A stretch of DNA of 64,000 nucleotides from an uncultured Planctomycetaceae bacterium. GTDB lineage: Bacteria; Planctomycetota; Phycisphaerae; SM23-33. Each line of letters begins with the position of its first letter. Positions within the stretch are counted from its first letter, which is position 1. Both the position numbers and the translations under genes were made by a program. The notes under the pieces were generated by a model that saw only the letters and a program-made list of their open reading frames with translations, did no database searches and was not told where the DNA came from. Location of the stretch: positions 4,912 to 68,911 of the forward strand of contig CAZIAZ010000002.1 of assembly GCA_964536835.1 (NCBI GenBank). The letters run 5' to 3'. Shown in pieces: positions 1 through 60,567 of the stretch.

Positions 1-50
1 TTTTGCTGGCTGGCGACATCAGAAAAATGCGGCATATTTTTTTAAAAAAA
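1..50. repeat. Partial copy of a short interspersed repeat (ttttgctggctggc ... aaatgcggcatatttttttaaaaaaaa). The same segment recurs at 1854..1903 and, in part, at 60494..60521.
   Basis: Direct comparison within the window. Positions 1-50 align to 1854-1903 with a few mismatches. Confidence 0.6.
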
Positions 51-75: not shown

Positions 76-630
76 ATGAAAGAATTTCCGCTGGCAAAAG
101 TTTTTCATCTTCTCGAACCAGGGCCGACGGTTCTCGTAACGACTGCGTCAAAGGAGAGCGGCAGCAATATCATGACGATGAGCTGGCACATGATGATGGA
201 ATTCCAGCCGCCGCTCATTGCCTGCGTAGTCAGCCCGTGCAATTACAGTTACGCCGCGCTGCTTTCAACAAAACAGTGCGTAATCGCCATCCCCACGGTA
301 GAGTTAGCCGCCACCGTTGTCGGCATCGGGAATTGCGATGCGCCGGACGTCAACAAGTTCGAGAAATTCAGTTTAACCCCACTGCCAGCCAAAAAGGTCA
401 AAGCCCCACTTATCGCAGAATGCATAGCCAACATCGAATGTAAAGTCACGGACACACGCATGGCCAATAAATACGCCATGTTCATACTGACTGCGGTACA
501 GGCGTGGTTTGACCCAAAACACAAGGAACACCGCATGATTCATCACAACGGTGACGGCACGTTCGAAGTCGATGATAAAAAAACGCTTAACCTGCGAAGA
601 AAAATGACCAAATGGAAAGATATTTCGTAG
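76..630 (+). CDS. flavin reductase-like FMN-binding protein
   Basis: 184-aa ORF with an aaggag Shine-Dalgarno (SD) 7 nt before the ATG. Its size and the SKESGSNIMTMSWH... segment match the flavin reductase-like split-barrel family. Confidence 0.55.
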   Translation: MKEFPLAKVFHLLEPGPTVLVTTASKESGSNIMTMSWHMMMEFQPPLIACVVSPCNYSYAALLSTKQCVIAIPTVELAATVVGIGNCDAPDVNKFEKFSLTPLPAKKVKAPLIAECIANIECKVTDTRMANKYAMFILTAVQAWFDPKHKEHRMIHHNGDGTFEVDDKKTLNLRRKMTKWKDIS

Positions 631-658
631 AACCTATCCCAAAAACATGGGCCTCGCC
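628..658. repeat. Short repeat TAGAACCTATCCCAAAAACATGGGCcTCGCC. It is the left-terminal motif of the interspersed element family, and its TAG is the stop codon of the flavin reductase gene.
   Basis: Near-identical 31-mers occur at 1811..1841 and 42728..42758. A shorter hairpin version occurs at 52352..52387. Confidence 0.6.
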
Positions 659-672
659 TGGAACATGCTCTT

Positions 673-1779
673 CTAATACCTGCATTCAGAGCACTCGCGG
701 GCAAATGTTTTTATGTTTTCTACGTCGCCCTTGAAAAAATGGTCGCTTGGACTGCAGATATAACCCGCATTATCTTTCGTAGCTTCAAAACACTCGCGGA
801 CAAGTTTTTTAACAACCTGCGGCGTACCTCTTTCAAAACCGGCGTTCTGGTCGAATCCGCCGACAAAGAACATCTTGTCGCCGATTTGAGCCGACGCTTT
901 TTTCAAGTCGCAGTCGCCGCCCATACTCGGCGGCGTCATGGTTTCCAAGCCGTCGGCTCCGTTCTTCGTGACAATATTCAGCAGCGGCATCAGGCCGCCG
1001 CAAAGATGATAAACTATTTTTACCGGCGATATGCTCTTAACAGCCGAGTGTTGCCGTATATCGTACGGCAGGCAGAATTCGGAGTGCATATTCGGGCTTA
1101 TCACGGTGCTAGACCCGGCTCCGCCGCCGGTTTCGAGAAGGTCACATTCAAGTTTGCCTGCAACGTTCCAGAATCTGAGCCGCTTCTGCAATATGGATTC
1201 CAGCATCGCATGTATCCACTGCGGATTGTCACACGCAGCATATATGGCCTGCTGCGTATCCATCAGACAACACAAATCCTGCCACGGGCTACCTTGCCCG
1301 AATCCGAAATACAACCCGCGAACAATGCCTTTTTCGCCGATGCGATTCCGCGCCTCGATTATCGCCGACTGGTCACAGCCGCACGGCACGGGGATATACC
1401 TGTCCGCCAGCTCCCAATCGCGCTCGGTCTTTATCAGGTATTCCGTAGTCCAGGTCGTAAACCTGTTCGACGCAAATTGATGCGTCAGTTTGCCGCCTGG
1501 CGTAGAGATTATTTCTGCATAATGCGTTACGCCGTCGGCATCGGCTGGAGTTTCTATGCGTTCAATCCGCCATTTATCAAGGTCAGCCTCTTTGAATATG
1601 GATTTGGCGGTTACGTATACGACCTGATCCATGCCCTCGAAAAATTCATACGCTTCGTACTGATTCATGCCGTTCAGATAAGTATCGAGATAATACTGCA
1701 TCCAGCTATGTACCTGGCAGGGCAGCCGGTCAGGCCGCCCGTTATCGAGAACCGTCAATAGTCTTTCTCGCGAAGTCAT
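673..1779 (-). CDS. uroporphyrinogen decarboxylase (URO-D) superfamily protein, MtaA/CmuA-like
   Basis: 368 aa. The N-terminal RLLTVLDNGRPDRLPC motif is typical of URO-D-like methyltransferases and decarboxylases. Confidence 0.55.
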   Translation of the reverse strand: MTSRERLLTVLDNGRPDRLPCQVHSWMQYYLDTYLNGMNQYEAYEFFEGMDQVVYVTAKSIFKEADLDKWRIERIETPADADGVTHYAEIISTPGGKLTHQFASNRFTTWTTEYLIKTERDWELADRYIPVPCGCDQSAIIEARNRIGEKGIVRGLYFGFGQGSPWQDLCCLMDTQQAIYAACDNPQWIHAMLESILQKRLRFWNVAGKLECDLLETGGGAGSSTVISPNMHSEFCLPYDIRQHSAVKSISPVKIVYHLCGGLMPLLNIVTKNGADGLETMTPPSMGGDCDLKKASAQIGDKMFFVGGFDQNAGFERGTPQVVKKLVRECFEATKDNAGYICSPSDHFFKGDVENIKTFARECSECRY

Positions 1780-1810
1780 GTTGCATTCTCCTGTAACCGA
1801 TGTCCAGTTT

Positions 1811-1981
1811 TAGAACCTATCCCAAAAACATGGGCGTCGCCGAAATCGAGCAATTTTGCTGGCTGGCAAGGAAGAAAAATGGCGGCATATTTTTTTAAAA
1901 AAATATTCTGCCGTTTTTCTGACGCCGCCAGGCTGCAAAAGAGCCGATTGCAGGCAGCCAAGGTTTTTGGGATAGATTCTA
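1811..1981. repeat. Complete 171-bp interspersed element with 19-bp terminal inverted repeats (tagaacctatcccaaaaac / gtttttgggatagattcta). It is MITE-like or REP-like and lies in the intergenic space.
   Basis: The reverse complement of 1963-1981 equals 1811-1829 with one mismatch. Its internal sequence matches window positions 1-50. Confidence 0.55.
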
Positions 1982-2017
1982 GTATAAATTATATTTATTT
2001 GATATTCTTGCACGATA

Positions 2018-2926
2018 TTGAACGTTTTTTTATACTATACTGACATAATGGAAAAATATCTGCTTAAAACGTTCGTACCTGCGGACAGATTTTTTCATCT
2101 GCACAGGGCGGAAATAACATGGTCGAAACTGGACGCAGGCCATCTGCACGGCTATGCGGAGGTTTTTTGGGTTGAAAAAGGCGACTTGTTCCACGTCCGT
2201 AATGGGGTAGGCGAGCTGCTTCACGAGGGCGATGTTGCATGGTTACGCGCAGGCGATTCACACGCTATGCGGAATACCGGCAAAAAAACCTCGATAATAA
2301 ATCTGGCATTTGCTGATTCGGTGTTGTCTTCACTTGAGCGACGTTATTATTCAAAGTCGACTCCGGCGCCGTGGAAATGCCCGCTAAATCATCGGATAAA
2401 TCATCTTGATGCCAGGCAGATTGTAAAGTTTCAAAACCTCGCCAACGTATTAGCCTTCAGCCCGCAAACCCGACTCTCTCTGGATAATTTTCTACTCGAC
2501 CTGCTGCAAACCATAAGCATGAACAATTACCATAATATTACGCCGCAAACAGATTGCCCTGAGTGGCTGACACGGGCAATCAACGAATTCGCACAGAAAC
2601 AGTTATGGAATTTGACGCAGCAGGAGTTTGCGAAAAAACTGGCGGGCAGATCTGTCGAACACGTCGGACGGACTGTTAAAAAAATTTTTGGGAAAACCAC
2701 GAATGAACTTCTCAACGAATATCGTCTGGAAAAATCAGCCGCCGATTTGTGCATAACGAACAAAGCCGTACTCGAAATCGCCATGGATAGCGGCTTTGAC
2801 AACCTGGGCTATTTTTACAGGCTGTTTAAACGACATTTTAACGAGTCTCCCTGTCGTTTCAGAAAGTTGCATCAGGCGCTTATTTTCACTTTCACTTCGG
2901 GCGGCAAAAACGGCAACTGCAAATAA
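2018..2926 (+). CDS. AraC family transcriptional regulator with an N-terminal cupin-like domain and a C-terminal AraC helix-turn-helix (HTH)
   Basis: 302 aa. The C-terminal region (KAVLEIAMDSGFDNLGYFYRLFKRHFNESP) matches the second AraC HTH. The start may instead be the ATG at 2048. Confidence 0.7.
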   Translation: MNVFLYYTDIMEKYLLKTFVPADRFFHLHRAEITWSKLDAGHLHGYAEVFWVEKGDLFHVRNGVGELLHEGDVAWLRAGDSHAMRNTGKKTSIINLAFADSVLSSLERRYYSKSTPAPWKCPLNHRINHLDARQIVKFQNLANVLAFSPQTRLSLDNFLLDLLQTISMNNYHNITPQTDCPEWLTRAINEFAQKQLWNLTQQEFAKKLAGRSVEHVGRTVKKIFGKTTNELLNEYRLEKSAADLCITNKAVLEIAMDSGFDNLGYFYRLFKRHFNESPCRFRKLHQALIFTFTSGGKNGNCK

Positions 2927-12091: not shown

Positions 12092-14152
12092 TTATCTTTC
12101 ACCCGTCAAAATTTCAAGACGACGGATGTCATCTTTGGCTATTCGCAGATTATACGTCGCATAAGTGAAAGACGGATTTATCTGGAGCGTTTTTTCAAAA
12201 AATTCTTTTGCACTGCGGAAATCATGGAGAGCTTCTTCATTTTTGCCGGCTGATTCATATTTCATACCTCTCAACGCCAGCGTAGCGCCAAGCTCGAAAT
12301 ACGCCTCAGGCATATTTTTATCTTCCGCAATCAATTCCTCAAAAACCTCTATAGCCTGGTCATACCACCCCATGCGTTCAAGAGTAGACGCACCCAGATG
12401 CAGATTTATCGCCGGCCGCGTAGGACTGGACTCCCGCAGGTAGGCAATATATTTTCTGACATCAAAATTTTCTGGGGTAATTCTTTTTTGTCTGGCAAGA
12501 ATTGCATTGGGACCATCATTGCGGATGAACAATGCCTGTCTCACATCCAGGTCAACAAGACAGAATTTTTTATCCCTTGAAAGTTTTTCCAGCAAAGGCC
12601 TGTTGAAATCGCTCGTGCGCAATACAACGATTTGAACATCATATTTGTAGCACGCTTCATCAAACGACTTTTTCCCCCTGACATATTCTTCGTTCTCGGT
12701 CAGGCAAGACGGCTGACAGGCAAAGGTACATGAAAAACCCGGTACTTGCGGGCGAGATTTTACAAAAAACCAGATATTGCTTGTCGAACCGAAATCGCAC
12801 CAGATTCGTCCGACCGGCTGATAAGTGTTAATCCAGTCTATCGCCGAAAACGGCACGTCAAGTTCCGATTGCCCGCAATCAAAACGAAACATGCGACGAT
12901 CATAGCTATAAATCCTATTAGTGATTACCAGATATCCGGTCGTAATGCCTGCGGAAATAACAACAACGCTCAAAAATAACAGCACCACTTTACGAACATT
13001 GTTCTTCCACGGCGATATGATACTCCAGATGCATTCCGTCGCCATCGGAAGCATTACCACACACGACGGCAAAATATTCCTTCGCATGGTCAACGATTGT
13101 GCAACCATAAGCAGCATAAGTCCGACCATTAACCATTTGCGGCGATATAGCCCGCATATACATCCTGCTCCGACCAGTCCGAGTGAAATCACGTAAGTAT
13201 GAAAAATCGACGTCTGCTGCCAGTTGTCATTATCAAACGGGCTGAACAATTCAGTTATGCTGTTTATCGGAATTTGAGTATCCTGAGCAGCCTGCCGCAA
13301 ATAAAGCAGCATCTCAAACGGAAACATAAATAATCGCCACGGGCTGGGACTGACAAAACTTGCGGCTATCACGACAAAAAAGGCAATCGCAAGCCGCCGC
13401 AAAACTGGCAGATATTCCGCAGCATCGCCTTTACGATATTTTTGCCACAGCCACAGAATCGCAGTTTCGCATAACGGCAAAAATACAAACAGCCAGCCAA
13501 GAAGAAAATAACTGTGTACATTGACCATAAATATCTGAATCACGGCTAATAAAAATATTTTCTTCCAGGACAACACATCCAGCCGGCCCATATAAAACCC
13601 CAGCATCACGTGCAGATTACACAGCATGAAAATATAAGAAAAAAGTTCAGGCCTTATATAAAATCGCTCGTAGCCGGCAAAACTGCAAAGAAGAATCACC
13701 ACGCCACCCAACGAAGCCGGCAATCCCAACCGCACACACAGCCACCCCGTCAATCCGAGTATGCTGCCGACGAGAATCAGGGTCAACACGAAAATTCCGT
13801 CAAATCCCCAATTGTCGTAAAACCACCACATAACAGCCTGCGTGCCCCAACTGACAGGAACAATACGCATCACGCCGTTGTCGTCCCACCACTCTCCAGG
13901 GCCGATATCAGTTTTATCATCGGTTTTCACATAAACAAAATTGCTTTCTCTGACAAAACTGCCCGTCTTCCAGAGATGTTCACCGAATGAAAGATGATAG
14001 CCGATATCGGCATTGCCCACAGGCCGTACGGCAAAAAGAATGCACGCCGCAAACGCAACCACAAGCGCCAGCCAATCGCATGTTTTCGCCAGGTACGACG
14101 AAAACAATTTTGGCGGCTTACTCGATATTTCATGGATAGCCGTTGAAGTCAT
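12092..14152 (-). CDS. polytopic membrane protein with C-terminal TPR repeats
   Basis: 686 aa with about 12 hydrophobic segments in the first 450 aa. The C-terminal ~150 aa carries a TPR-like pattern (EAYFELGATLALRGMKYESAGKNEEALHDFRSAKEFFEKTLQINP). Confidence 0.45.
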   Translation of the reverse strand: MTSTAIHEISSKPPKLFSSYLAKTCDWLALVVAFAACILFAVRPVGNADIGYHLSFGEHLWKTGSFVRESNFVYVKTDDKTDIGPGEWWDDNGVMRIVPVSWGTQAVMWWFYDNWGFDGIFVLTLILVGSILGLTGWLCVRLGLPASLGGVVILLCSFAGYERFYIRPELFSYIFMLCNLHVMLGFYMGRLDVLSWKKIFLLAVIQIFMVNVHSYFLLGWLFVFLPLCETAILWLWQKYRKGDAAEYLPVLRRLAIAFFVVIAASFVSPSPWRLFMFPFEMLLYLRQAAQDTQIPINSITELFSPFDNDNWQQTSIFHTYVISLGLVGAGCICGLYRRKWLMVGLMLLMVAQSLTMRRNILPSCVVMLPMATECIWSIISPWKNNVRKVVLLFLSVVVISAGITTGYLVITNRIYSYDRRMFRFDCGQSELDVPFSAIDWINTYQPVGRIWCDFGSTSNIWFFVKSRPQVPGFSCTFACQPSCLTENEEYVRGKKSFDEACYKYDVQIVVLRTSDFNRPLLEKLSRDKKFCLVDLDVRQALFIRNDGPNAILARQKRITPENFDVRKYIAYLRESSPTRPAINLHLGASTLERMGWYDQAIEVFEELIAEDKNMPEAYFELGATLALRGMKYESAGKNEEALHDFRSAKEFFEKTLQINPSFTYATYNLRIAKDDIRRLEILTGER

Positions 14153-20136: not shown

Positions 20137-21594
20137 TTATGCTCCGCCAATCTGGCCTTTTGAGCCGAGATAGAAATTCTGTCCCGGCGCTATCGTGATT
20201 TCCTTGCCGAGTTTTTTCAGCTTATCGGCAAGTTCATCCGCACTGTTGGCGAATAGTGGTGAAATTTCAATCGCAGCCGCCACGAGGCCACTCGCGTCAC
20301 GAGGTATTTTGACGCCGGCTGCGTCCAGCCAGCTTGCCCAGCGCCGCACCTGATCGTGCAGGCAGGTAGCCGGCGAATCATTGCCCTCCGCATTCTTTAT
20401 GGGGCTGAACTCTTCTTCACGACGTGTTTCATATATAACCGTCTTTTCCGCCAGCGGCATGGCGTCGAAAACGAACATCTCAAGTTTGACGGCGTTCTCA
20501 TTTTCAGGCTTGACGAGTTCGCCGGCGTCGTTGACATAAGGCACTTTCTTGTCCGCGCGATGGAACGGCAGCATGCATTTGCCGCCGTCGGTGAGTTTTT
20601 CCATAAAAGCGCGGCTGAAGATGTGAATCGCAATCGAGCCGGCTGAAAATTTCAGTGTACCGTCCTGATTGCACGCCATCGCCAGCGATTGCGGCATATC
20701 GGAATATTCAATGACGCAGGTTTTGCCGTCGACTACGCAGAAGTTGCCGAGCTTTTCAAGCGGCTCGCGTTTGGGGAGCGATTTGGCTGACATTTCGGCG
20801 CCGTTCATGGCGTGCAGGCCGATGAATATCGGGTCGATAGCCCTGACGAGCGGATTGTCAACCTGGAAATAGCTGATATATTCTATGCCGCGCCTGGCCA
20901 TGTCCGCCAGTGCACCGCTGTGACGCAGCGCCGTCAGACTGCCGCCGTGGCCGTCCGGGCTGACCGCCAGACGATATTTGCGGCCAAGCAGCAGTTTGCC
21001 GTCGTAGCCTATCGCAGGCATTGTGCCCTGCTTGACAAAAATGATGTCCTTGGGATCGAACGCCCAATAATCGTTCTGGCGAAAATGCGCCTGCGTGGCG
21101 GTATCATTAGTAGGGCTGGTGAGAATGTACCACGGAATGGTTTTACCAAAACGCAAAGACGCCGAGCGAATCTGCTCGGCAAAAAGACGGAACAGCGGCT
21201 TGTTGACTACCGGCGTACATTCAAAACACCCTTTGGGGCCTTCATAGCCCAGCCGCGTACCCTGGCCGCCAGCTACCGTAAAGGCTGCAACCTTACCTTC
21301 CGAGATAAGTTTTTCGCCGAGTTTGCGGGCTTGAGCGTAAATGCCCGTAAGTGGCAGGCCGGGCTTGGGAGAGGCGGGAATGGTTTGCGGAGGCGTCATG
21401 TCACGCGGCACTTCCACGGCAGGCTTGTCAAACACGTATTCCCTGGTGAGTTTGTCCATAAAATCAAAATCTATTTCCGAAAGCTGTTCAAGCAACAACT
21501 GCTGATGATCCGGCCCGAGTTCATCGAAGAACTTCAACAAGTGCTGCTGCGAATGTTTTTCGAGTATTTCTTTTATGCTCTTGTAGTCCTTCAT
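20137..21594 (-). CDS. UDPGP-family nucleotidyltransferase (UDP-N-acetylhexosamine or UDP-sugar pyrophosphorylase-like)
   Basis: The nucleotide-binding motif AAFTVAGGQGTRLGYEGPKG is typical of the UAP1/UDPGP family. 485 aa. Confidence 0.6.
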   Translation of the reverse strand: MKDYKSIKEILEKHSQQHLLKFFDELGPDHQQLLLEQLSEIDFDFMDKLTREYVFDKPAVEVPRDMTPPQTIPASPKPGLPLTGIYAQARKLGEKLISEGKVAAFTVAGGQGTRLGYEGPKGCFECTPVVNKPLFRLFAEQIRSASLRFGKTIPWYILTSPTNDTATQAHFRQNDYWAFDPKDIIFVKQGTMPAIGYDGKLLLGRKYRLAVSPDGHGGSLTALRHSGALADMARRGIEYISYFQVDNPLVRAIDPIFIGLHAMNGAEMSAKSLPKREPLEKLGNFCVVDGKTCVIEYSDMPQSLAMACNQDGTLKFSAGSIAIHIFSRAFMEKLTDGGKCMLPFHRADKKVPYVNDAGELVKPENENAVKLEMFVFDAMPLAEKTVIYETRREEEFSPIKNAEGNDSPATCLHDQVRRWASWLDAAGVKIPRDASGLVAAAIEISPLFANSADELADKLKKLGKEITIAPGQNFYLGSKGQIGGA

Positions 21595-21805
21595 ATGTTT
21601 GTCTCCAATTTTTTAATATGTCCTTCGTAATTCTACGGTCTTTCAAAAAAAAGACCCGCAGATGAAAGCATCCGCCATCAGACGGACAGGCAATAACCTT
21701 AAAACTAAATACAACCTATGACCCGTAGTAATTCATTTATCGTGTATTATTACGACCTGTCGTATTTTATGTAAACCGAAAATACAAATCCGTAAAATTT
21801 TGTTA

Positions 21806-38572: not shown

Positions 38573-38741
38573 GACTGTACGCTATACAGGTACTTTTAAA
38601 AACTTTTTAACATGACCATTCTGAATATATAGGTTACTTTTAAAAATTTTTTAGAACGACCGTTCAGAATATATAGGTTACTTTTTAAAACTTTTTAATG
38701 CGACTGTTCAGAATATGCTATTTTAAAAATTTTGAAAAATT
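38573..38741. repeat. four imperfect tandem copies of a ~44-bp AT-rich unit (GACYRTTCWGAATATATAGGTTACTTTTAAAAAYTTTTTAA)
   Basis: Read directly: the unit starts near 38573, 38614, 38658 and 38702. The array lies between degP and the LysM lipoprotein gene. Confidence 0.7.
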
Positions 38742-38760: not shown

Positions 38761-39291
38761 ATGCAAAATGGAAAGATGATGAAACAGGTTTTGTGGCTGA
38801 ATATTCTGCCGGCGATTATAGGCCTTCTGCTGACGGCTGGCTGCGCAAGTAAGCCGAAACAGAATGTTCAGATGGACACGTCCGAACTGAATCCACCGGC
38901 GGAGTCGACAGCCGCGAATGCTCCCGCCGTAGCCGACGAACCGGTTGCGCCGGCCACTGCCGCACCCGTAACGACGGAGGCTGCCTATAAGCCCGCGCCA
39001 TCGCCGGCACCGTTGAATCCAGACGCTGAAAAACCCAAACCTTCGCCCAGGCCTATCAGAAAAGTTGAACCGGCCACGCTTACCGAAGCAATGAATACCC
39101 CAAAAAAACCAGCCGCTTCGTCGAAAGTGAACTATTACATAGTTCGACATGACGACACTTTCTGGAGCATATCACGTCGCGTGTACGGCTCGGGCAAATA
39201 TTGGAAAACCATTCAGGACGCAAATCCGGATGTCAGCCCCGAACGACTGATGGTCGGCCAAAAAATCGTAATTCCCGAAATCGCAAAATAA
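38761..39291 (+). CDS. LysM-domain lipoprotein with a Pro/Ala-rich linker
   Basis: Lipobox LLTAGCAS. The C-terminal LysM is YYIVRHDDTFWSISRRVYGSGKYWKTIQDANP. SD gaaaggat. Confidence 0.65.
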   Translation: MQNGKMMKQVLWLNILPAIIGLLLTAGCASKPKQNVQMDTSELNPPAESTAANAPAVADEPVAPATAAPVTTEAAYKPAPSPAPLNPDAEKPKPSPRPIRKVEPATLTEAMNTPKKPAASSKVNYYIVRHDDTFWSISRRVYGSGKYWKTIQDANPDVSPERLMVGQKIVIPEIAK

Positions 39292-42694: not shown

Positions 42695-42727
42695 CAACAA
42701 ATGGTGTCGTACGTTATCTTTGAAAAT

Positions 42728-42777
42728 AGAACCTATCCCAAGAACATGGGCGTTGCCATTGGTGGATAGGTGCTATT
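42728..42777. repeat. third copy of the TAGAACCTATCCCAAgAACATGGGCGTtGCC repeat, with a downstream partial inverted partner (ggatagg)
   Basis: Direct comparison with 628..658 and 1811..1841. Confidence 0.55.
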
Positions 42778-42783
42778 TAAAAA

Positions 42784-42815
42784 CCCCGTCTCGACGGTCA
42801 AGACGGGGTTTCGTG
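42784..42815. terminator. stem-loop terminator between the convergent photolyase and porin genes (ccccgtctcgac / gtcaagacgggg)
   Basis: An 11-12-bp stem with TTTT on the minus-strand side and ttt on the plus-strand side. Confidence 0.5.
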
Positions 42816-42853
42816 CAATGGCCTATAAAAAGGCTGTATTCAGAAGAATTTGT

Positions 42854-44981: not shown

Positions 44982-45168
44982 GCCTGTCCGCCCGACGGCG
45001 GATGTTTTTTTTCTACGATTTTTGTTAAAAAAACGTAGGATTAAGACGGACATAATGAATCTCTACGGGTTAAAACCCGTAGCATCATAGTCATCAGGCT
45101 TTCGCCTGTCCGCCTCACGGCGGATACTTTCATCTACGGTTTAAAAACCGTAGAATTAAGACGGACAT
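44982..45168. repeat. two ~70-bp hairpin-rich direct repeats (gcctgtccgccNNacggcggat...ctacgNttt..aaaNcgtagRattaagacggacata) flanking a perfect hairpin (ctacgggttaaaacccgtag)
   Basis: Read directly. Each unit contains a GC stem (tccgcc/ggcgga) and an AT-rich stem (ctacg..cgtag). The unit ends are inverted (gtccg...cggac). Confidence 0.65.
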
Positions 45169-45182
45169 ATTAAAAAAACGCG

Positions 45183-45226: not shown

Positions 45227-45538
45227 ATGGCTAAAGCCAAATGCACGAAATGTAAAATTCGCCCCCTGGGTGACAAGGTCCTGGTAAAGCGTCTGGAGGC
45301 GGAATCCATCACAGCCGGCGGCATAGTCCTGCCCGATACCGCCAAGGAAAAACCCAAGCAGGGAACGGTTCTCGCCGTCGGCGAAGGCAGCCTGAACAAG
45401 GACGGCAGCCGTACCCCCCTTCAGGTCAAAACCGGCGATACTGTCCTGTTTACCAGCTACGCCGGAACTACCGTCAAAATCGACGGCGACGAACTCATGC
45501 TCATGGATGAGAGCGACATCCTGGCAATCATTGACTAA
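45227..45538 (+). CDS. groES: co-chaperonin GroES
   Basis: [44 protein letters not shown]. 103 aa. Confidence 0.9.
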
Positions 45539-45633: not shown

Positions 45634-45924
45634 ATGGCAAAGGCAGCTGGAATTTTCATGGATGTAACAACGAGATGGGCGGAAAAGCTTCAAGTCGATA
45701 TGACGGTTCTCGAATGGGCATTCGACAATCTTAGACATAATGCATCTAACGAAGGATGTCATAATTTCCCATCAAGAGATGATGTAGCCTCTAATGACAT
45801 TTTCTTTAATGCAGTTCGCCGAATGTATGAAATAAGAACTGGCAGAGTGCTTGAAAAAAGTGAATATCCTATGCTCAGAAGAATGATTCTAAAAGTACAT
45901 AAACAAGGTAAAACCCCAAGATAA
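45634..45924 (+). CDS. hypothetical 96-aa protein in a low-GC insertion between groES and groEL
   Basis: Own SD (aggagt). The start context nearly duplicates that of groEL (aggagNattaNNNATGGCAAAG). GC is visibly lower than in both chaperonin genes. Confidence 0.35.
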   Translation: MAKAAGIFMDVTTRWAEKLQVDMTVLEWAFDNLRHNASNEGCHNFPSRDDVASNDIFFNAVRRMYEIRTGRVLEKSEYPMLRRMILKVHKQGKTPR

Positions 45925-45946: not shown

Positions 45947-47584
45947 ATGGCAAAGAAGAAAATAATATTTGACGTAGATGCCCGTTCGAGCATTCTCAAG
46001 GGCGTCAAACAGCTGGCGAGAGCCGTCAAGGTCACCCTCGGTCCTACCGGCCGTGTTGTAGTACTGCAGAAAAGTTTCGGCAGCCCGACCGTCACAAAAG
46101 ACGGCGTGAGCGTAGCCAAGGAAATAGAGCTGGCCGACCCGAATGAAAACATGGGCGCCCAGATGGTCAAGGAAGTCGCGTCAAAGACGTCGGATATCGC
46201 AGGCGACGGCACGACGACCGCGACCATTTACGCCGAAGCCATCTTTGAAGAAGGCCTTAAAAATGTAACCGCCGGTGCAAATTCAATGGAACTCAAGCGC
46301 GGCATCGATAAAGCCGTCGCCGCAATCATCGACGAACTCGGCACACTCTCCAATCCCGTCAAGAGTTCAAAAGAGGTCGCACAGGTCGGCGCCTGCTCGG
46401 CCAACCAGGACGCCGAAATCGGCAAAATGATTGCAGATGCAATGGACAAGGTCGGCAAGGACGGCGTAATCACGGTCGAGGAAGGCAAATCGCTCGACAC
46501 CTATGTTGACCTCGTCGAAGGCATGCAGTTCGACAAGGGCTACATCAGCCCCCATTTCGTGACGGACATGGCCGCCATGGAATGCAAACTTGAAAAACCA
46601 CTTATCCTGATATATGAGAAAAAACTCACAGCCATCAAGGACCTTGTGCCGCTTTTGGAAAAAATCGCACAAGCCGGCCGGCCGCTCGTCATCATCGCGG
46701 AAGACGTCGAAGGCGAGGCGCTGGCGACGCTGGTAGTGAACCGTCTGCGCGGCACGTTCCAGTGCGTGGCGGTCAAGGCCCCGGGCTTCGGCGACCGTCG
46801 CAAGGAAATGCTGCGTGACATCGCAACGCTCACCGGCGGCAAAGCCATCATGGAAGACATGGGCATCAGCCTTGAAAACATCCAGATGACCGACCTCGGC
46901 ACAGCCAAGGAAATCCGCGTCGCAAAAGATACCACGACCATAATCGAAGGCGCAGGCAAGGAAAGCGACATCAGAGGCCGTATCGAACAGATAAAGACCC
47001 AGATTGAAACCACCACCAGCGATTATGACCGTGAAAAACTCGAAGAGCGTCTGGCCAAGCTCGCCGGCGGCGTCGCCCGCATCAACGTCGGCTCAGCCAC
47101 CGAAGTCGAGATGAAGGAAAAGAAAGCCCGCGTCGAAGACGCCCTGCACGCCTGCCGGGCCGCAGTTGAAGAAGGCATTCTGCCTGGCGGCGGCACAGCT
47201 GTGCTGGCTGCCGTCAAAGTCCTCGACAAGGTCAAGACGTCAAACGAAGACGAAAAGACCGGCGTGGATATAATTCGCCGCGCATTGTCGGCGCCAATCA
47301 AGCAGATAGCCGCCAACAGCGGTCTGGACGGCAGCGTCGTAGCGATGAAAGTTATGGAAAATCCCGAAAAAATCGCCAATTTCGGCTATAACGCGTTAAC
47401 CGGCAAATATTGCGACCTCGTGAAAGACGGCGTAATTGTGCCGACCAAGGTTGAACGCTCAGCCCTGCAGAACGCCGCCAGCGTTGCCGGCCTTCTGCTG
47501 ACCACTGACGCTGTCATCTCCGATTTGCCTGAAAAGAAAGACAAACCCGCCATGCCCGGCGGCGGCATGGATGACATGATGTAA
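45947..47584 (+). CDS. groL: chaperonin GroEL
   Basis: Canonical GroEL sequence throughout, with the C-terminal GGM-type tail (PGGGMDDMM). Confidence 0.95.
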
Positions 47585-52351: not shown

Positions 52352-52387
52352 TAGAACCTATCCCAATAATTGTTACAGATAGGTTCT
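52352..52387. repeat. hairpin copy of the tagaacctatccca repeat (agaacctatc / gataggttct) in the divergent promoter region of the glycolipid-modification cluster
   Basis: A 10-bp perfect stem. The same 14-mer heads the repeats at 628, 1811 and 42728. Confidence 0.55.
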
Positions 52388-52445: not shown

Positions 52446-53306
52446 ATGGAAACAGGAAAAAAATGTAAAGTCATAATCAACGGCGACGATTTTGGCCTTT
52501 CACGGCGGGTATCGGAAGGGATTATTCATGCCCACAAGTACGGCATTTTGACGTCAGCGACGTTTCAGGCTAACGGCGACGCATCCGAATATGCAGCCTC
52601 ACTGCTGGCGGAAGTTCCGACGCTCGGCGTCGGCGTTCACCTGAACATATCGCAGGGCCGCTGCATCTCCAAAGCCGGCATGAAACTGGCAGATGAAAGC
52701 GGCATGATGAACCACACTGCCGTAGGTATAATCATGCTTCTGCTTAAAAAGCCCAATCTCCTTTCAGCCGTCAGGGAAGAGTTTGACGCTCAAATACGAC
52801 GTGCCGTTGCCATGGGCATTCGGCCGACGCACCTTGACACGCACAGGCACAGCCACGGATTTGGCCCCGTCTGTTCGATAGTGGCAGAGTTGGCGAAAAA
52901 ATACAACATCCCGTTCATTCGTCGTCTTGGCGAACATCTGCCGTGGGTCGGATGGCCAAAAGCGCCGGCCAAACAGAAACACATATCCAATATATTGACT
53001 TTCTTGGGCGATATGAACAAACTGCGTCACTGGAGGTTTTTCAGAACGGCTGGCACGTGGGGCGTGGCGCATACGGGCTGCATTACACGCGAGTGGCTGT
53101 TGACTGCCGCCGGCGCACTTGTAAAAGTCTGTCCATGTAAAACCATTGAAATCATGACTCATCCAGGGTACTGCGATGATTTGGACGAATCGGTAACGAG
53201 ACTTATCGAAAGTCGGCAGATTGAACTCGCCGCACTTTGCGACGACGACGTGCGAAAGGCGTTCGATGCAAACGGGATTGAACGGATAAATTATGGAAAC
53301 CTCTAA
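52446..53306 (+). CDS. YdjC/ChbG/HpnK/NaxD-family carbohydrate de-N-acetylase
   Basis: N-terminal VIINGDDFGLSRRVSEGIIHAHKYGILTSATFQANG, with the conserved metal-binding Asp and His. 286 aa. Confidence 0.7.
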   Translation: METGKKCKVIINGDDFGLSRRVSEGIIHAHKYGILTSATFQANGDASEYAASLLAEVPTLGVGVHLNISQGRCISKAGMKLADESGMMNHTAVGIIMLLLKKPNLLSAVREEFDAQIRRAVAMGIRPTHLDTHRHSHGFGPVCSIVAELAKKYNIPFIRRLGEHLPWVGWPKAPAKQKHISNILTFLGDMNKLRHWRFFRTAGTWGVAHTGCITREWLLTAAGALVKVCPCKTIEIMTHPGYCDDLDESVTRLIESRQIELAALCDDDVRKAFDANGIERINYGNL

Positions 53307-58049: not shown

Positions 58050-59606
<1,557 letters not shown>

Positions 59607-59613
59607 TTTGTAA

Positions 59614-59744
59614 AAAGGTTCAAGTAACAAGAAACAACCTACAAGCAATCTTAAAAACTCAAATTTCAATTTAAAGAAGTCTCTCTTGAATCTTAAAATT
59701 TGAATTTTGCTTGTAGGTTGTTTCTTGTTACTTGAACCTTTCTT
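59614..59744. repeat. ~130-bp near-perfect palindrome with 35-bp perfect arms (aaaggttcaagtaacaagaaacaacctacaagcaa) and a partly self-complementary 60-nt AT-rich centre
   Basis: The reverse complement of 59709-59743 equals 59614-59648 exactly. It lies between convergent genes. Confidence 0.75.
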
Positions 59745-59749
59745 ATAGG

Positions 59750-60211
59750 CTATAGGACTTTTCGATTTTCATCCTCATGGCTGCCATGTTCCGCCTGGGT
59801 GCGATTTTCATCCTGCCGTCTGTGGTTTATGCCGAGTTTTTTCTCATACAGACGATAAACGTCCTCCGATTCGAGGCCCAGGAGCTGGCAGATGCTTATC
59901 CAGAAAAAGAGCATGTCGGTGGCTTCAACGCGGGCGTTCTGCAAATCCTGGAGTTGATATTGCCTGCCGGCTTTCGCTTCGGCGTACCAGTGTTTCCAAC
60001 TGAGACAGTCTTGAAGTTCATTGCATTCGGAGGCCATCGCGTCGATATAATTTTTCAGGGCGCGGCCTACATGCAGACGGATTTCCATATTGGTCTCATC
60101 AGTATTGAGCGATTTGCCGAGAGCGAGGGTATCGAATCCTGCACGTGAATTTAACGCCGCCTGCAGCGGCCAGATGTCTTCCAGGCTGTTGATGTTTTTA
60201 TCTTCTTCCAT
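59750..60211 (-). CDS. all-alpha NTP pyrophosphohydrolase (dimeric dUTPase / MazG-like, dUTPase_2-type)
   Basis: 153 aa. The pattern WKHWY...EATDMLFFWISICQLLG...YRLYEKKLGINHRRQDE resembles dimeric dUTPase-family proteins. Confidence 0.4.
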   Translation of the reverse strand: MEEDKNINSLEDIWPLQAALNSRAGFDTLALGKSLNTDETNMEIRLHVGRALKNYIDAMASECNELQDCLSWKHWYAEAKAGRQYQLQDLQNARVEATDMLFFWISICQLLGLESEDVYRLYEKKLGINHRRQDENRTQAEHGSHEDENRKVL

Positions 60212-60493
60212 TGCTTCTGCTCCTTATCGCATTTCAACCTTGATAATTCAGGTTTGCCGGTTTACTTTGTCCGTGATTACGTCATAAAAATTCGGAATAT
60301 CACCAAATATGCCTAATTTCCCTTCCTTACTACAACCGTAAAAATCGGAACTCTCAACTTTTAAATGCTCCATTTTCCAAAAACGCAATTCATTTTAGCG
60401 ATTATAGGATTATCGGGAAAAATTGCAAACTACGAATAAAAGTTACAGGCAATCCTGCGTTGATTGCAATGCAGACAGGCGCTGCCAGGGAAG

Positions 60494-60567
60494 AGAAATG
60501 GCGGCATATTTTTTTAAAAAATCATTCCTGTGGAATTTTTTGCGATATTGTGCCGGAAGCCGCCATT
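60494..60567. repeat. third copy of the aaatggcggcatatttttttaaaaaa repeat, with an 11-bp inverted partner (gaaatggcggc / gccgccatttc) 45 nt downstream
   Basis: Direct comparison with 24..50 and 1874..1903. Confidence 0.55.

Follow-up and report, generated by a model that had tools for sequence, protein, structure and literature searches.

Results

An imperfect palindrome between two divergent genes

Between two divergent genes of the window, by which we mean the whole 64,000-nucleotide stretch of DNA that was analysed, lies a 171-bp element with inverted-repeat ends (1811–1981; Table 1). A URO-D-like gene (673–1779, minus strand) is on its left and an AraC-type gene (2048–2926, plus strand) on its right, which places it upstream of both neighbours and 31 nt from the URO-D-like start codon. 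The element begins with TAGAACCTATCCCAAAAAC (1811–1829) and finishes with GTTTTTGGGATAGATTCTA. Sequence comparison bore out the preliminary description of this DNA in that 1811–1829 and 1963–1981 are 19-bp terminal inverted repeats (TIRs) with one mismatch. The complementarity of the ends continues to 25 nt at 88%, and along its full length the element is a near-complete, imperfect palindrome. The segment had been called non-coding, and a Pfam search of its sole internal ORF (61 aa) accordingly gave no match. The JGI pipeline calls a 61-aa gene on the minus strand (window 1776–1961; 9741–9926 on L132 and 720–905 on L133, L numbers denoting the loci fetched for comparison) that lies almost wholly within the element. 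This gene call is almost certainly spurious and induced by the repeat. Size (within about 70–300 bp), absence of coding capacity, TIR length (within about 15–30 bp) and the many dispersed copies described below are those of a MITE.

The copy at 1811–1981 is identical in five assemblies (L001, L002, L003, L132 and L133), and sequence identical to the window is found in the 160.5-kb JGI contig Ga0116247_10000110 (sample 3300010352), Ga0116170, two ENA assemblies and GCA_035403485.1. Contigs of two assemblies terminate 54 nt into the element, as repeats usually interrupt short-read assemblies.

Table 1. The candidate MITE, its related copies in the window, and palindromes with the same terminal inverted repeat (TIR) in other lineages.
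Feature	Window position	Strand	Loci	Remarks
Full-length candidate MITE	1811–1981	.		171 bp, counting in TA at 1811–1812 and 1980–1981
Left TIR, GAACCTATCCCAAAAAC	1813–1829	+		Same end as IS5/IS427-type insertion sequences
Right TIR, GTTTTTGGGATAGATTC on the plus strand	1963–1979	−		One mismatch to the left repeat
Decayed left half-copy, 3´ part	1–50	+		Interior match 21–50 at 97%
Left-end fragment, 31 nt	628–658	+		97% identical; between convergent genes
Internally deleted derivative, 49 bp, both ends	42727–42775	+		Left 31 nt 90% identical; right end GGATAGGTGCTA degenerate
Mini-palindrome, 36 bp, two terminal cores, TAGAACCTATCCCAATAA ... GATAGGTTCTT	52352–52387	+		Between divergent genes
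Decayed internal fragment, 33 nt	60489–60521	+		97% identical to element positions 60–92; intergenic
Same-TIR palindromes, Chlamydiae			L012/L077	
Same-TIR palindromes, Rickettsiales			L020	
Same-TIR palindromes, candidate-phyla-radiation bacteria			L029/L035/L065	
Same-TIR palindromes, unclassified "bacterium" MAG			L032/L036	Copies resemble L029
Same-TIR palindromes, Kiritimatiellae			L070	
Same-TIR palindromes, Kofleriaceae			L048	
Same-TIR palindromes, beta/gammaproteobacterial MAGs			L039/L010	

Related copies and other repeats within the window

With up to one mismatch, the terminal 15-mer TAGAACCTATCCCAA occurs at five sites in the window (628, 1811, 1967–1981 on the minus strand, 42727 and 52352), as against none in 100 dinucleotide-preserving shuffles. 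Several related copies are thus present within 64 kb, as had been claimed, and the accompanying statement that all of them are intergenic is broadly right. The TAG that starts the left-end fragment (628–630) is at the same time the stop of a flavin-reductase-like gene (76–630). When an element that inserts at TA and has G as its first base hits the TA of such a codon, a TAG stop is restored. A degenerate right end of this copy may reach 675. The stops of the convergent genes 76–630 (plus strand) and 673–1779 (minus strand), TAG at 628–630 and CTA at 673–675, border a stretch of 48 nt that opens with the left-end fragment.

The preliminary description placed recurrences of the left-end 31-mer at 628–658, which stands, and at 42728–42758, which is off by one (42727–42757 is correct). 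The latter copy is also more than a left end, since it is an internally deleted element that has retained both ends, located between a photolyase and a porin gene in convergent orientation. Immediately beyond this derivative, the same gap contains a terminator-like hairpin of classical form, AAAAACCCCGTCTCGACGGTCAAGACGGGGTTTCG (42779–42816). The hairpin reported at 52352–52387 is there, with both terminal cores in 36 nt. Its CCCAATAA end variant also occurs in other lineages, and this mini-palindrome is probably what is left of another subfamily. Contigs of two other assemblies that encode the same YdjC-family protein (window 52446–53306) carry it without change.

The interior of the element was said to recur at the window start, positions 1–50. 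The match found there covers 21–50 at 97%. On the full contig (L001/L132), this copy proves to be a left half of 82 nt that matches element positions 13–93 at 91% identity, has a degenerate terminus and lacks the right arm, and it lies directly upstream of gene 76–630. The partial interior copy noted near 60494–60521 is likewise found, starting at 60489. The 49-, 36- and 31-nt forms, the half-copy and the inner fragment would represent internal-deletion derivatives and decaying remnants of insertions. A CRISPR or tandem-repeat array was considered and ruled out, the copies being dispersed.

Repeats of other kinds are present in the window as well. An unrelated long palindrome (59614–59741), with 56-nt arms that are 86% complementary and separated by 16 nt, occupies the gap between genes 58050–59606 (plus strand) and 59750–60211 (minus strand), which are convergent; it may act as a bidirectional terminator or be a further fold-back repeat. 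A motif of roughly 36 nt (CTACGGTTTAAAAACCGTAGAATTAAGACGGACATATTAAAAAA type) is found at 45024–45059 and 45139–45177 and, inverted, at 21609–21646, each copy being preceded by CCTGTCCGCC..CGGCGGAT. The two first copies are upstream of an ORF starting near 45228 and of a putative groES/groEL pair (45634–45924 and 45947–47584, identified from ORF sizes and adjacency), and the third is upstream of a minus-strand gene (20137–21594). The motif has the appearance of a promoter or operator common to these genes, with a possible link to stress. Three tandem 44-nt repeats, 73–86% identical, occupy 38591–38722 immediately upstream of ORF 38761–39291.

A dispersed family in digester metagenomes and in a second species

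Scanning of metagenomes with the family-specific left end AACCTATCCCAAAAACATGGGC yielded 54 contigs from four related digester samples, one of which (Ga0116170) also yields L133, the locus identical to the window. None of the contigs overlaps the window, and they consequently represent other loci. The de-duplicated set holds 25 distinct full-length sequences of 154–172 bp, mostly more than 95% alike, and five internal-deletion derivatives of 67–79 bp. Full-length copies and derivatives together have 74 distinct 15-nt outer flanks, equivalent to at least about 37 insertion sites, a count that is not per genome because the contigs may derive from two or more closely related strains or species. 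The TIRs are conserved in all 25 aligned copies, and the differences between copies consist of few substitutions and a variable central loop. The high identity of most copies suggests that the family has spread recently. In a Pirellulales MAG representing a different species (CAZBKA01; L026 and L051), copies that are roughly 95% identical, as read by eye from the alignment, have other flanks and occupy other sites. Further copies are present beyond the window, and the family is not confined to conserved orthologous positions.

Crude ORF maps of 23 copies placed 8 in tandem, 6 in convergent and 4 in divergent contexts, with 5 at contig ends where no context could be assigned. The few overlaps with ORFs involve marginal ORFs only, and the neighbouring ORFs differ from copy to copy.

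Two observations were made on individual contigs. On L110 (Ga0116171_10003960), copies of another repeat family, related to the first and with ends that read TAGAATCCATCCC(T/C)CAA..., lie at about 13160–13340 and at about 12160–12230 (contig end). One of its copies abuts a copy of the window family, with a single TA in common, and the other is about 1 kb away. This organism hence has at least two MITE subfamilies. In L097 (821–992) and L125 (5485–5656), a copy of the element has a common left flank and different right flanks, a pattern produced either by chimeric assembly across the repeat or by real recombination between copies.

Folding of the element and its relation to neighbouring genes

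As RNA, the plus strand of 1811–1981, with the left arm read first, folds at −88.4 kcal/mol (z = −9.65, matched by no shuffle) and the minus strand at −76.9 kcal/mol (z = −7.9), a difference of 11.5 kcal/mol in favour of the former. G-U or U-G predominates at three stem positions in the pair table of the 25 aligned copies, and these positions may contribute to the difference between the strands. The stability of the hairpin and the better folding of one strand could be explained if the copies were a family of small structured RNA genes with the long hairpin as the functional product, one of the options of the preliminary description. We consider this very unlikely. Palindromic DNA of any kind folds well as RNA, and a scan of the whole window against Rfam 15 gave no match. 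Two-sided change was seen in 1 of 59 pairs, with a covariation term of −0.12 kcal/mol, in a test for which the 25 copies are too similar to be informative. Furthermore, the orientation of the copies is mixed, with five running with the genes and three against them among the eight tandem contexts (counted by hand).

Another option raised at the outset was a shared cis-regulatory module, i.e. a palindromic operator, promoter or bidirectional terminator, kept by the host and immobile. The full copy does sit in a divergent gap, and because the URO-D-like start codon is so near, the promoter of this gene must lie inside or beyond the element. TTGGGA of the right TIR, taken as a −35 box, makes up a promoter-like site with the flank (1967–1995), and the half-copy at the window start is placed immediately upstream of a gene. 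On the other hand, the number of promoter-like sites (two) is no higher than the 2.9 expected from shuffles, no terminator-like site was called at 1811–1981, and the copies are spread over tandem, convergent and divergent contexts next to varied ORFs. In addition, the same ends are found on transposase-encoding insertion sequences (ISs) of archaea and bacteria, as described in the next section, which is unexpected for a host operator. A dedicated regulatory module is, in our judgement, highly improbable. An intrinsic terminator was rejected separately, as none is called in an element that is upstream of both its neighbours.

The ends are those of IS5/IS427-type insertion sequences

A genome collection with one genome per prokaryotic species was scanned with the pattern TAGAACCTATCCCAANAA (17 specified bases). 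The scan is noisy, with about 70 matches estimated to arise by chance, and among the matches listed many go beyond chance, being located at contig ends, several per MAG, or in inverted pairs. In Nitrososphaerales MAGs, the same terminal 15–18 nt enclose elements of 976 bp (L013, L041) and 907 bp (L021), with a pair of overlapping ORFs that match NCBIfam NF033580 "IS5 family transposase" and Pfam DUF4096 and DDE_Tnp_1. The TIR of these archaeal ISs reads GAACCTATCCCAA(A/T)A. Their downstream ORF enters the TIR and ends ...FLG followed by TAG, the underlying TTT TTG GGA TAG being the reverse complement of the conserved CTATCCCAAAAA. On plasmids of E. coli and Vibrio, IS5-family ISs of 862–871 bp show the ends GA(A/G)CCTATC(C/T)CAA, a TIR of the form GA(A/G)CCTATCCCAA, and a C-terminus of LLG before the stop; E. 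coli plasmid NZ_CP027138.1, for example, carries one of 871 bp. In a Planctomycetaceae MAG, contig ends (L019/L067) encode ...IVIFLRFLG and a stop that run into the same TIR, and their 22 terminal nt are common with the right arm of the element at 1811–1981. In autonomous relatives, the right end thus encodes the transposase C-terminus, (F/L)LG, and its TAG stop. This overlap with the last codons and the stop of the transposase offers a simple explanation for the near-identity of the end in archaea and on enterobacterial plasmids.

The IS427 group of the IS5 family comprises elements of 800–1000 bp with two frameshifted ORFs, a DDE transposase and short (2–4 bp) duplications (PMC3281130). The three archaeal elements fit this group in length, in their two overlapping ORFs and in their TTA flanks. 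A motif search of the window gave no transposase with these ends, and a tblastn search for a partner IS over all fetched loci, including the 54 metagenome contigs, returned the archaeal ISs only and none in Phycisphaerae contigs.

Assemblies of other organisms also end in such sequences. Contigs of a Chloroflexota MAG (JAEYTI01; L005, L031, L037) and of the Planctomycetaceae MAG CAZVYJ01 (L019, L040, L063, L067) stop 36–60 nt inside an element with the same terminal repeat, which indicates that IS427-type elements or their MITEs fragment those assemblies too.

The target site

TA adjoins both ends of essentially all copies, and the outer flank positions −4 to −2 are strongly A/T-rich. No longer direct repeats are visible in the listed flanks when read by eye. 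At three places, abutting elements have exactly one TA in common (GGTTC-TA-GAACC; L016, L096, L110), which is predicted if TA is a duplicated target and is not predicted if TA belongs to each repeat. The planctomycete IS ends with the same TIR (L019/L067) have TA on both sides, and the complete archaeal and plasmid ISs have 3-bp TTA/TAA flanks, not TA. It seems that the duplication length differs within the IS group or that the inference of a 2-bp TA duplication is incomplete. Target-site duplication had been proposed for scrutiny, and the evidence for it consists of the TA at both ends and of the single TA between abutting elements; no empty site was found. All loci were compared with the window by BLAST, as were reconstructed flank+TA+flank junctions with all loci, and nothing usable resulted; a single match in L048 was rejected as a local repeat. 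The nearest homologue of the URO-D-like protein outside this organism is only 61% identical, and no close relative is therefore available for comparison of the orthologous locus.

TA at the ends is a hallmark of IS630/mariner elements. The family could accordingly be envisaged as MITEs moved by another TA-targeting transposase (IS630/Tc1-mariner type), with ends that are IS5-like by resemblance, and the TTA/TAA flanks of the complete IS5-type relatives would agree with this. We give this idea very little credence in view of the 17–22 terminal nt that are identical to IS5/IS427-type ends, including the part coding for the transposase C-terminus, and of the TA on both sides of the planctomycete IS ends. 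Among the loci examined, these ends were not met on any element of IS630 type, and 2-bp duplications are common in the IS427 group (PMC3281130).

Palindromes with the same ends in other lineages

The same TIR bounds strongly self-complementary, non-coding elements of 125–283 bp in a dozen MAGs from at least eight other lineages (Table 1), with Patescibacteria, Paceibacterota and Saccharibacteria among the MAG labels. These elements have ends of 15–18 nt, mostly TA flanks, and fold z-scores of −4.7 to −18.5. They have their ends in common with the window family, whereas their interiors are unrelated to it in sequence. They give the impression of MITEs that arose independently from a single IS group, which appears to spawn fold-back MITEs repeatedly.

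Discussion

We propose that the element at 1811–1981 is a MITE with IS5-family (IS427-type) ends that is moved in trans by a DDE transposase, and place the probability of this reading at about 85%. Of the options in the preliminary description, it is the mobile miniature element that gains from the nature of the ends, the dozens of sites and the TA flanks. In the mechanism that we envisage, the element would keep only the two TIRs recognised by a DDE transposase of the IS5-family, IS427-group type, with a non-coding, self-complementary interior between them. A full-length IS elsewhere in the genome, sharing these ends, would supply the transposase, which would bind both GAACCTATCCCAAAAAC termini, and the element would be moved or copied into a TA within AT-rich intergenic DNA, the TA being duplicated in the process. 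Mobilisation in trans, the 2-bp TA duplication and current activity are features that we infer. We read the element as selfish DNA that may have incidental effects on neighbouring genes, and not as a dedicated regulatory or RNA module.

As selfish DNA of an ordinary kind, the family opens no new field, and its interest is in part practical. Short-read assemblies of this Phycisphaerae lineage are interrupted at the element, which also induces a spurious gene call and touches gene ends, in one case by providing the stop of the flavin-reductase-like gene and in another by lying 31 nt from a start codon. For these reasons, annotators should mask it. The family also supplies dozens of potential sites for strain typing and recombination, and it draws attention to IS5/IS427-type transposition in an uncultured planctomycete of anaerobic digesters, where the identity above 95% of most copies suggests recent activity.

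From the viewpoint of mobile DNA, the appeal lies in a single IS end, constrained by overlapping transposase codons, that seeds unrelated MITEs in many phyla. As a speculative extension, the element may belong, as one of the branches, to a pan-prokaryotic and so far unrecognised superfamily of fold-back MITEs built on the 15–19-nt IS427-type end. Such a superfamily would have had independent origins in Planctomycetota, Chlamydiae, Rickettsiales, candidate-phyla-radiation bacteria and others, lineages with small genomes included. The end would be frozen by its role in encoding the C-terminus and stop of the transposase, and in some hosts the hairpins could have been co-opted as RNA or transcription signals, with which the folding asymmetry between the strands would fit. 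We regard this wider proposal as tentative and, as it stands, rather unlikely to hold in full.

Extensive secondary structure, an intergenic multi-copy distribution and internal-deletion variants are traits of MITEs as a class, and several known MITE families affect transcription or mRNA processing. A study of MITEs in P. gingivalis reportedly also mentions the IS5 family. Searching the literature by end sequence gave unrelated primer matches only and no paper with the end sequence in a microbial context, and a search on MITEs in Planctomycetes gave nothing on the window family.

Short palindromes that are interspersed between genes bring to mind the REPs, which are 20–40 bp long, tagged at one end by GTAG or CGTC, and associated with RAYT tyrosine transposases (PMC3733652). 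The mini-palindrome at 52352–52387 is of REP-like size, and tagged REPs have been reported in Planctomycetes (PMC3733652). An origin as REP/REPIN-like extragenic palindromes spread by a RAYT (an IS200/IS605-like tyrosine transposase) is nevertheless scarcely credible. G stands before TAG in only 11 of the 74 flanks, and neither a GTAG nor a CGTC tag is present; the ends of the element match those of DDE-type ISs; and its main form, at 165–172 bp with 19-bp TIRs, is larger than a REP and corresponds to the definition of a bacterial MITE (70–300 bp, 15–30-bp TIRs, no coding capacity; PMC3733652).

The comparison with IS5/IS427-type ISs themselves is closer. The TIRs and the short, T/A-rich target are alike, whereas the element has a length of 171 bp, no transposase gene and an interior unrelated to that of the ISs. 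Being without a transposase, it is to be viewed as a derivative of the IS427 group and not as a member. MITEs are well known as a class, and what is added here, judging from sequence, is the placement of this element as a derivative of IS5/IS427-type insertion sequences. Bacterial examples of the class are RUP, NEMIS, Bcr1, ERIC, YPAL and Nezha (PMC3733652), with which the window family has size, TIRs and lack of coding capacity in common, while forming a sequence family of its own in an uncultured Phycisphaerae lineage.
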